Assembly: GCA_026396805.1 (NCBI GenBank) | Contig: JAPLVZ010000011.1 | Location: forward strand, 54,135 to 118,134 | Source of the DNA: Candidatus Falkowbacteria bacterium | GTDB taxonomy: Bacteria; Patescibacteriota; Patescibacteriia; Patescibacteriales; UBA12465 | Direction: 5' to 3' | DNA length: 64,000 nucleotides | Shown here: positions 23,701-24,274 of the stretch, piece after piece | Layout of the letters: each line of letters begins with the position of its first letter | Position numbering within the stretch: position 1 is the stretch's first letter | The notes under the pieces: model-generated | Seen by the model: only the letters and a program-made list of their open reading frames with translations | What the model was told of the DNA's origin: nothing | Database searches by the model: none | Position numbers and translations under genes: made by a program

Positions 23701-24274
23701 AAGCCGCTTCAGTAGCAATCTTTCTATAACTGGTGCCATCATAATAAAAAATTTCGGACGCGCCGTTATTCTTTACTAAATCACCGATTGAATATTGACC
23801 GCTCGGTAAAACGGAACCAAGAGTGTAGTTGGTGAAGAAAGCATCAGAAACGTCAAGAATTTTCTTGTTCCAGTTGGTGCCATATAAGGCAGACGCCTGG
23901 GCTTCGCTCTGGATTGCTCTTAAGACGCCATTAGGTTCAACGGCGTAGACTTTAGGATCGGTTGTGATTTTCACCAACTTAGTTCCTGGTCTCATGGTCA
24001 CATTGCCACCCAACGGGTAGCTCTGCAGTTCAGACGCCGGAATAGTAACTACTCCGCTGAAATCTGAATACCAGGAGAAGTAAACAGAAAAATGAGGGAA
24101 AACATATCTCTTCCCGTCAGCTGCAAGGTAATAAACCGAAGTATTGCCGGCCATCTTAATCAAGTCACCGGTTGAAGCGGCGGCATTGGTGGCAGAAGGA
24201 GCGACTAAGCCGCTCATGGCAATGATGGATAATACCATTACGCTGACAGTGAAGAATTTGCGTAATTTTTTCAT
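20759..24274 (-). CDS. S-layer-like / surface array protein (Cys-free, T/S/A/V/N-rich beta-repeat protein)
   Basis: 1171 aa. Signal peptide MKKLRKFFTVSVMVLSIIAMSGLVAPSATNA. No Cys in the whole sequence. At least 5 recurring Ig-like modules (e.g. GKFTLKATNDVIRVTSIAL..MKLYVDGVQVGS; AQFKFTAISDSADLTEINVV..IKLYDGTTLIDS). The N-terminal ~120-aa module is shared with the M23 peptidase at 47067-48128. Confidence 0.7.
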   Translation of the reverse strand: MKKLRKFFTVSVMVLSIIAMSGLVAPSATNAAASTGDLIKMAGNTSVYYLAADGKRYVFPHFSVYFSWYSDFSGVVTIPASELQSYPLGGNVTMRPGTKLVKITTDPKVYAVEPNGVLRAIQSEAQASALYGTNWNKKILDVSDAFFTNYTLGSVLPSGQYSIGDLVKNNGASEIFYYDGTSYRKIATEAAFYANRFNFDNVLTASTAVAGTGVTITGAESALVNVAQNGSAVVITGSGLMVSLSASTPLAASVPQNGARVPMAKVNLTAANDGAVSVNSITVNRIGLSTYNNIDKVWAEKDGVIVASKKSMNSNDQSILTFSPALVVNAGQTVSVDLLVSLKLDNGVAAGNIGLSIPSLSAVSATSASVSGSFPINGNLMSATSYNVVNLAISEPTTATTTVKVGDEKVELGRFTLGFSGTAKDVSLKSIMLKNNGVEDLSTATMNLYLEQAGNKVSVNTVVSGRFVTFYFATAGLDLLKDDSSKIFYIKGDVIAKENVAPNSFMFFLNKSTDLVAYEKATSFGANVYADNTTVAADAYHISNVTITAGAVAVTKKSTSPSDTTIIKGSDSVMLLANIRADEAITADGLNIKYTSGSLASTTNQFENVRVYLNGLLLDSFDPVASTTLDYIVKTIDSTLNLVKGDNEVKIMAKAKTTAPSGSAIRFRLDGGIFNSQNPEYVVSGNSVSGSISGTASGATFTVSAAVLTTVRSDGYSAGKTIVAGSSDVSLGKFTLKATNDVIRVTSIALGTNASTTPENSGNISDMKLYVDGVQVGSTVDFGSTGATFSSLNFDIAKDSTKAVELKGSFDSSALGGFETLMTVNSQDSRGTSITAGNKATTTTFALAPAGTLNVELGGNTPAAAILVSKAAEQEIAQFKFTAISDSADLTEINVVNWDGSAITSSADARIASIKLYDGTTLIDSFVPVSGTGKFTITNGKVLIAANTSKTLSVKVSLNNIDNDASATNKDIMIRFTTVKAKSSAGSEAPTTANANGNSFRIRKTVPTVALLTLPGSLLTAGENVVSKFTVTADINGDVTLRKIVLKYATSTNVDLATMTGNAVRVNGVVKNASSTVDLAAKTITVDFANSSYEVITANSSKTFEILSDISIGGTGTSTESLTTKIQESAAYGETGDFEWSDGSSMTTFVGTWSNGHRVPGLPTTTQVMSK

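Follow-up and report, generated by a model that had tools for sequence, protein, structure and literature searches.

Proteins that pair an M23 peptidase with a C-terminal domain for targeting follow a well-established plan, as in lysostaphin with its SH3b domain. The closest described structural counterpart of the module reported here is the repeat of EccB (PF05108, T7SS_ESX1_EccB; PDB 3x3m, 3x3n, 4kk7, 5cyu, 6sgy, 7nps), the part of the actinobacterial type VII secretion (ESX) core complex that lies in the periplasm. EccB1 has four repeats of ~50-55 amino acids (aa), each built of two helices and a 4-stranded sheet, and its repeat 1 weakly resembles the wall-binding protein PlyCB, wall binding by EccB1 being termed only a hint (PMC4769845). 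The present analysis concerns a 64,000-nucleotide stretch of Candidatus Falkowbacteria bacterium (assembly GCA_026396805.1, contig JAPLVZ010000011.1, positions 54,135 to 118,134 of the forward strand), hereafter the window, in which a module of EccB-like repeats is common to two otherwise different exported proteins, both encoded on the minus strand by open reading frames (ORFs). ORF-A (20759-24274) encodes 1171 aa (GenBank MCX6794841.1, annotated as 'hypothetical protein' in a Candidatus Falkowbacteria metagenome-assembled genome), and ORF-B (47067-48128) encodes 353 aa (GenBank MCX6794868.1, 'M23 family metallopeptidase'); the contig that carries both is 129.6 kb long. The most economical reading is that the module would serve as a non-covalent retention or targeting device, used as SLH, CWB2, LysM and SH3b domains are in Firmicutes, and the chances that it acts as a non-covalent anchor to the envelope or wall are put at about even.

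A tandem-repeat module common to two exported proteins

Pairwise BLASTP of the two proteins returned a single, ungapped alignment of ORF-A aa 22-154 with ORF-B aa 217-349, in which 66 of 133 residues are identical (50%; 61% positives; E=1e-37). An earlier sequence-only reading of this DNA had proposed a ~120-aa module in both proteins, at 23807-24169 (ORF-A aa 36-156) and 47079-47438 (ORF-B aa 231-350), from a by-eye alignment of ~45% identity. These intervals form the core of the BLASTP alignment and the motif string written out for them was correct; the homology was confirmed and is slightly stronger than estimated, the identity figure having been a little low. The similarity held under an alignment statistic, and a chance or low-complexity origin is ruled out by the E-value of 1e-37 and by the thousands of homologues described below. 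The placement given to the module was also right, straight after the signal peptide in ORF-A and at the extreme C-terminus, after the Peptidase_M23 domain, in ORF-B. No third locus was found in the window, either by tblastn with each module as query (next matches at E>0.5) or by hmmsearch of the whole 64 kb with repeat and module profiles, which gave no copies beyond those of ORF-A and ORF-B.

What the sequence-only reading lacked is that the module is internally duplicated, with a third copy following in ORF-A at aa 161-215. The module consists of two tandem copies (R1 and R2) of a ~55-60-aa β-β-β-α-β-α repeat; ORF-A continues with a more divergent R3, giving the order R1-R2-R3, and ORF-B lacks R3, ending 2-3 residues past the module. 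By hmmsearch, supported by AlphaFold2 (AF2) models for the first two, the ORF-A copies are R1 at 23996-24175 (minus strand; aa 34-93; domain E=3.5e-24), R2 at 23807-23992 (minus strand; aa 95-156; E=7.3e-23) and R3 at 23630-23794 (minus strand; aa 161-215; E=1.4e-16), and those of ORF-B, supported also by BLASTP, are R1 at 47265-47444 (minus strand; aa 229-288; E=5.4e-21) and R2 at 47076-47261 (minus strand; aa 290-351; E=6.3e-21). Judged by hhalign between the repeat profiles (R1-R3, E=7e-12; R2-R3, E=5e-6; R1-R2, E=1e-4), the three units are homologous to one another, and the segment common with ORF-B therefore corresponds to R1 and R2 of a tandem repeat. The AF2 model of ORF-A aa 30-230, made with 78 homologues, has a mean predicted local distance difference test score (pLDDT) of 96.1 and a predicted template modelling score (pTM) of 0.89, and contains the β-β-β-α-β-α unit three times, with the elements β38-41, β48-50, β56-58, α62-68, β75-78 and α80-84 in R1. 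Aromatic and polar residues of the module that are invariant are, in ORF-A numbering, Y48, R56, W68, N91, K102, Y110, W135, D141 and Y150. Two cysteines of ORF-B, C228 and C245 (window 47385-47447, minus strand; YC..GSLIR....SVYYCG), are conserved in the M23-type copies of the module, in which a disulfide between them may hold the N-terminal strand in place; the ORF-A-type and cupredoxin-type copies have no matching cysteines.

The two carriers are of very different build. ORF-B comprises a hydrophobic leader, a Peptidase_M23 domain (PF01551; 47568-47915, minus strand; aa 72-187), a short linker and the C-terminal module. The peptidase match is well above its cut-off (54.4 bits against 28.7 in hmmscan of Pfam-A; E=1.4e-14), both M23 motifs are intact (H73-x3-D77, HxxxD; H172-x-H174, HxH), and alignment with PDB 9gy1 pairs RIHEGND with RMHNGID and SHLHFE with PHLHFE. 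In a search with full-length ORF-B, the matches listed (at least 120) all covered 86-100% of the query at 59-93% identity, mostly over their full length, and included M23-module proteins from both Falkowbacteria and Uhrbacteria. ORF-A starts with a signal peptide (24176-24274, minus strand; aa 1 to ~33, MKKLRKFF...PSATNAAA), which, like that of ORF-B, was read directly from the sequence as a hydrophobic leader rather than with a signal-peptide predictor. R1-R2-R3 follow, and then ~950 aa rich in Ser, Thr, Ala and Val; past aa 230 there is no Cys at all, and ~59% of the residues are S, T, A, V, G or N. Self-BLAST found no significant internal repeats within the C-terminal 950 aa, in which a short recurring motif is visible by eye. 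A scan of GTDB species genomes with a single protein as query gave 289 relatives, of which 80 loci were kept; an orthologue of ORF-A was present at all 80, and 79 of them have kept R3, which is specific to the ORF-A family. Across these orthologues the module is 80-85% identical, against 60-70% elsewhere in the protein. Many of the 80 loci carry the title 'uncultured Gammaproteobacteria bacterium'. These titles look like placeholders and were treated as such because the sequences show 70-85% identity and the gene order of Falkowbacteria, and the distribution of ORF-A is not to be taken from them as proteobacterial.

Comparison with named families and folds

The module has the terminal positions of SLH, LysM, SH3b, PG_binding_1-4, CW_binding, SPOR and GW domains, which would fit a divergent member of one of these wall-binding families. 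The searches speak consistently against it. Hmmscan of Pfam-A at E<=1 gave no match for full-length ORF-A and only Peptidase_M23 for ORF-B; neither ORF-A nor the module had a match in NCBIfam; and PDB sequences, searched with phmmer and two profiles, gave nothing for ORF-A and nothing significant for the module, EccB1 appearing in a profile search at a non-significant E~0.7. Matches of one profile to amicyanin and nitrite reductase in the PDB were discarded, being due to cupredoxin passengers within that alignment. PHROGs returned marginal matches only (E~0.002). The SLH domain is made of three repeats that are helical and bear a TRAE-type motif; SLH (PF00395) had no Pfam match in the module, the predicted fold of which is β-rich (β-β-β-α-β-α). 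LysM, SH3b, PG_binding_1-4, CW_binding_1-2, SPOR and GW had no Pfam or NCBIfam match to it at E<=1, and none of their folds, nor that of SLH, was among the significant Foldseek matches of either model described below. As far as profile searches reach, none of the named wall-binding families includes the module, and a hidden kinship with one of them is very improbable. In the literature, no publication describing the module was found, nor any that combines EccB with Patescibacteria.

Structural comparison points instead to EccB. With the three-repeat model as Foldseek query, EccB1 was the best match (E=3.8e-4), at a global template modelling (TM) score of 0.24; the low whole-model score indicates a match at the level of the repeat, in a different overall arrangement, and for that reason R2 was also modelled alone (pLDDT 81.8). 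The best 10 PDB matches of this single repeat are all EccB1, EccB3 or EccB5, with TM 0.57-0.68, a root-mean-square deviation (rmsd) of 2.7-3.6 Å over 57-65 columns and Foldseek probabilities of 0.87-0.99. Specific structural relatives of the fold are confined to these EccB repeats, which belong to envelope proteins. At the sequence level, an EccB gene from a mycobacterial plasmid, found through a tblastn search with ESAT-6, was used with 120 homologues to build profiles for hhalign. A single-repeat profile of the module aligned in register with EccB repeat R4 (P=8.8e-6, probability 83%) and module R2 aligned with EccB R1 (P=5.7e-4), against P>=0.012 in reversed-sequence controls; similarity among the EccB repeats themselves is, when measured in this way, no higher than that. 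Taken with the structural match, this weak sequence evidence makes remote homology between the module repeat and the EccB repeat likely. The module is not, for all that, a member of EccB/PF05108.

The EccB fold bears directly on what the module might do, since this nearest fold is located in a multi-protein assembly (7nps, 7np7, 6sgy) and the repeats of EccB1 pack on each other through their helices (PMC4769845). Both observations favour a protein-protein docking or oligomerisation unit, whose contacts with other modules or with the S-layer-like protein would plug the M23 peptidase, the cupredoxins and the Ig-like proteins into a proteinaceous surface layer (S-layer). Homotypic contacts of this kind are conceivable, the putative lattice protein ORF-A itself bearing the module and an extra repeat, and conservation of the module across paralogues would suit a common protein partner equally well. 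Against docking, no part of these proteins is better conserved over very many species than the module, whereas the contacts of surface lattices usually evolve fast, and the M23 peptidase must reach the peptidoglycan, which is located beneath the S-layer. On balance docking is regarded as rather unlikely, though it is a serious rival to anchoring.

Two further structural comparisons were made. PlyCB (PDB 4F87), the wall-binding subunit of PlyC, the lysin of streptococcal phage C1, was outside the top 50 Foldseek matches of both models, and hhalign of the repeat profile against PlyCB from phage C1 gave a probability of 0.2%; a link to this protein was therefore dropped. The best matches in BFVD are uncharacterised actinophage proteins, A0A1I9SA71 of Rhodococcus phage Weasels2 and A0A345MGB2 of Streptomyces phage LukeCage, with two-repeat/single-repeat structural matches (E=4.5e-5, target TM 0.69; rmsd 1.8 Å over 60 columns) at 16-18% identity to the module.

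Distribution and domain architecture

A search of 1.84 billion cluster representatives (clustered at 50% identity) with an R1R2 profile hidden Markov model gave 5,802 matches at E<=1e-3, of which 2,359 were at E<=1e-30. The module together with R3, used as query against a word-indexed protein database, gave 352 proteins, the named ones from Patescibacteria and the others from unclassified 'bacterium' entries. All family members that carry an organism name are from Patescibacteria, Falkowbacteria, Uhrbacteria or Parcubacteria, and as far as these named members go the family looks specific to Patescibacteria, the ultra-small bacteria of the Candidate Phyla Radiation (CPR); the lineage-specificity that had been suggested from the sequence has so far held.

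Domain architectures were inspected in the best 120-150 matches per search, ~270 in total and weighted to close relatives. In most of the best 150 representatives the module starts at ~aa 20-60, directly behind the leader, and in ~15 it is C-terminal; many of the 150 show two matched stretches, which may be due in part to a third repeat and not to a complete second copy. A hydrophobic leader precedes the module in 199 of 205 proteins with an N-terminal module, some of these sequences being partial. Among the same 205, a lipobox-like motif was seen in 5, a later transmembrane-like segment in 2 and an LPxTG-like motif in 5, and with these features in so few proteins no other retention device is apparent. 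The partners of the module include, besides M23 peptidases, cupredoxin/plastocyanin domains (PF00127, PF13473) and Big_7, fn3, Pur_ac_phosph_N, Trypsin_2, CarboxypepD_reg, Cohesin, Big_1/Invasin, Ice_binding and LVIVD domains; further carriers are ORF-A-type proteins of ~1,150-1,250 aa and stand-alone proteins of ~180 aa. By their domain assignments, the passengers are mutually unrelated and typical of the extracytoplasmic space. The module remains 50-60% identical between paralogues with unrelated passengers, a degree of conservation that fits one common ligand.

Patescibacteria are largely episymbionts, and the passenger list raises the question of whether such a ligand could lie on another cell. 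The module would then attach to the envelope of a host or prey cell and bring effectors, the M23 peptidase included, to it. This agrees with the presence of proteases and of adhesin-like domains (Ig, invasin, cohesin, fn3) among the passengers and with the structural look-alikes in actinophage proteins, which must handle host envelopes; for exported proteins that other Patescibacteria express at high levels, a part in host attachment has been suggested (PMC10936435). The M23-module protein, however, is well conserved over nearly its whole length in very many Patescibacteria and has the look of a housekeeping enzyme of the wall, not of a weapon against particular hosts; the module is strongly conserved over lineages that are expected to differ in their hosts; and ORF-A lies within an ECF-sigma/anti-sigma unit conserved in 74-76 of 80 genomes, which fits a core component of the envelope. 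Adhesion to a partner cell is accordingly viewed as improbable.

Phage lysins that use the module as a wall-binding domain were also looked for. A tblastn search of 50,697 phage genomes with the module found nothing, as did a scan of IMG/VR with the ORF-B module, and tblastn of phages with EccB found only an ESX-carrying mycobacterial prophage. Scanning IMG/VR with a degenerate alignment yielded one contig (L083), the sole module-bearing contig of that collection. Its module protein, encoded at 584-2089 on the plus strand, is a 501-aa protein with a signal peptide and is not a lysin, and the lysin idea was given up on these results. Near this gene, at 4047-6002 on the minus strand, a 651-aa protein has a C-terminus that resembles a lytic transglycosylase. 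The contig could be from a CPR phage, from the edge of a prophage, or a misclassified cellular contig.

Proposed role of the module

In the anchoring mechanism proposed here, the carrier protein would leave the cell via Sec and lose its signal peptide, and the module would fold compactly and bind non-covalently, through its invariant aromatic and polar residues, to a conserved constituent of the producing cell's envelope, which would be peptidoglycan or a wall-associated polymer. Patescibacteria are generally described as having no outer membrane, and on such an outer-membrane-less cell this binding would retain on the surface exported proteins that would otherwise be soluble, namely the giant surface protein, the cupredoxins and the Ig-like adhesin-type proteins; it would also carry the active M23 endopeptidase to its substrate. 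A single conserved ligand-type role is supported by the conservation among paralogues, by the aromatic and polar invariants, by the lack of any other recognisable anchor and by the design of an M23 peptidase with a C-terminal module. The anchoring function suggested in the sequence-only reading thus stands in part: the terminal position, the signal peptides and the unrelated passengers bear out the behaviour of a portable extracytoplasmic targeting unit, while binding to peptidoglycan or another wall polymer would be its putative activity. A link to PlyCB, looked for in the present analysis, was not found.

Several points weigh against an anchoring function. We infer both that the module binds anything and what it binds, and a ligand is not deducible from sequence. 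M23 is the sole peptidoglycan-acting partner among the ~270 architectures, most of the other partners being generic surface domains, and a dedicated peptidoglycan-binding domain usually accompanies several classes of wall enzyme; this census is biased to close relatives, because the best 120-150 matches of each search were inspected. The EccB repeats in the solved ESX complexes (ESX-5, 7nps, 7np7) join in protein-protein assembly. PlyCB was in neither model's top 50 Foldseek matches, hhalign detected no resemblance between its profile and that of the repeat, and for EccB1 itself the authors of the structure went no further than a hint of wall binding (PMC4769845).

Genomic context of ORF-A and other features of the window

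Immediately upstream of ORF-A, on the same strand, are a DUF5667 anti-sigma-like membrane protein (24781-25617, minus strand) and, next to it, a sigma factor of the extracytoplasmic function (ECF) type (25666-26352, minus strand). The order ECF sigma, DUF5667, ORF-A is the one maintained in 74-76 of the 80 species-level genomes, and this conservation of three genes suggests that ORF-A is under ECF-sigma control. Downstream of ORF-A lies a 771-aa Wzy_C (O-antigen-ligase-like) protein with tetratricopeptide (TPR) repeats (17404-19719, minus strand), which recurs at this position in at least 13 of the related loci, where the flanks are short; from its domain content it may glycosylate the surface protein or make a wall polymer. 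Nine neighbours of ORF-A were scanned, five on the downstream and four on the upstream side. Besides these three genes they include a 165-aa coiled-coil-like ORF, a 277-aa ORF with no Pfam match and the following. A 1298-aa ORF (12356-16252, minus strand) has Lamin Tail Domains together with a permuted papain-like amidase (Peptidase_C92), lacks the module and is a probable further large surface protein. Two neighbouring ORFs of 248 and 177 aa (27525-28806, minus strand) encode SET-domain proteins, which are unusual in bacteria. An 822-aa ORF (28842-31310, minus strand) carries two ATP-grasp ligase units, an ATP-grasp_4/LAL_C2 unit and a D-Ala-D-Ala-ligase C-terminal domain, and may take part in peptidoglycan-precursor or peptide ligation.

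That ORF-A is an S-layer protein is only an inference, drawn from its size, its Cys-free composition rich in Ser, Thr, Ala and Val, and its signal peptide. S-layer candidates of Patescibacteria have been predicted with lengths of ~1,130-1,270 aa in a preprint (bioRxiv 10.1101/2024.05.28.596244), and ORF-A, at 1171 aa, falls in the length class given there. In cluster look-ups, ORF-A relatives were not connected to the candidate accessions of the preprint.

Elsewhere in the window, a tRNA gene interrupted by a group I intron is located at 41550-41878 on the plus strand; the intron matches Rfam RF00028 with 86 bits at 41602-41815. D-arm, T-arm and acceptor stem can be made out in the exon halves on its two sides, and the gene was not reported by ARAGORN. 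By the U/omega-G splice rule, its anticodon would be Thr-UGU or Asn-GUU.

Relation to known systems

Much of bacterial diversity belongs to the Patescibacteria, hardly any of them has been cultured, and how their envelope is built and decorated is essentially unknown. A module that marks thousands of their exported proteins would allow the CPR surface proteome to be listed from sequence, and it would be a candidate handle for labelling or capturing CPR cells, as the cell-wall-binding domains of phages serve. It also provides a concrete hypothesis on how a conserved wall hydrolase and the S-layer-like proteins take up their positions, and the EccB link adds a second, independent context for what the periplasmic EccB repeats of the tuberculosis ESX systems bind. 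A broader proposition can be held tentatively, as possible but somewhat doubtful: that Patescibacteria use the module as their general wall anchor, the counterpart of SLH, directed to an envelope polymer that is conserved and possibly CPR-specific, and that it is at the same time the evolutionary sibling of the EccB repeats. If true, a general anchor would tether the S-layer, the M23 hydrolase of division or remodelling, extracellular redox proteins and adhesins, and the repeats on the periplasmic side of the mycobacterial type VII core, long without an explanation, would likewise be units that bind wall polymers. Were the module merely a protein-docking unit, it would still be a useful new domain family, of ordinary interest.

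'Peptidoglycan-binding domains' have been reported in proteins of Patescibacteria on the basis of InterPro assignments (PMC10936435). They are presumably different from the module, from which they are set apart by description, because they were assigned through InterPro and the module has no match in Pfam or NCBIfam.

With EccB, the module has in common the unit of ~50-60 aa with a 4-stranded sheet and two helices (in EccB R1-R4 and, by the AF2 models, in the module), the tandem arrangement of these units, and their occurrence in proteins that are exported and located in the envelope, in bacteria that have no outer membrane of the classical Gram-negative type. It differs in being undetected by the EccB Pfam model and in having two or three repeats, differently arranged, instead of four. 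Module proteins lack the N-terminal membrane helix and the central core β-sheet domain of EccB and have signal peptides of the cleavable type. EccB belongs to Actinomycetota and is fixed in one machine, whereas the module belongs to Patescibacteria, is free-standing and is fused to many passengers. The ESX locus that encodes EccB also has the genes for EccC, EccD and MycP, none of which is among the nine ORFs scanned on the flanks of ORF-A, the part of the window to which the scan for ESX genes was confined.

In its use, the module is closest to SLH, CWB2, LysM, SH3b (lysostaphin) and GW domains, being terminal, repeated and portable and occurring on a giant surface protein, a wall hydrolase and other exported proteins; as with anchors of the SLH type, it is better conserved than its passengers. 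In sequence family and fold it is unrelated to all five, and its wall ligand is a putative one. The fold and the strategy are thus already known from EccB and from the wall-binding domains, respectively, and what is new is a large, lineage-wide family and the context in which it is found.

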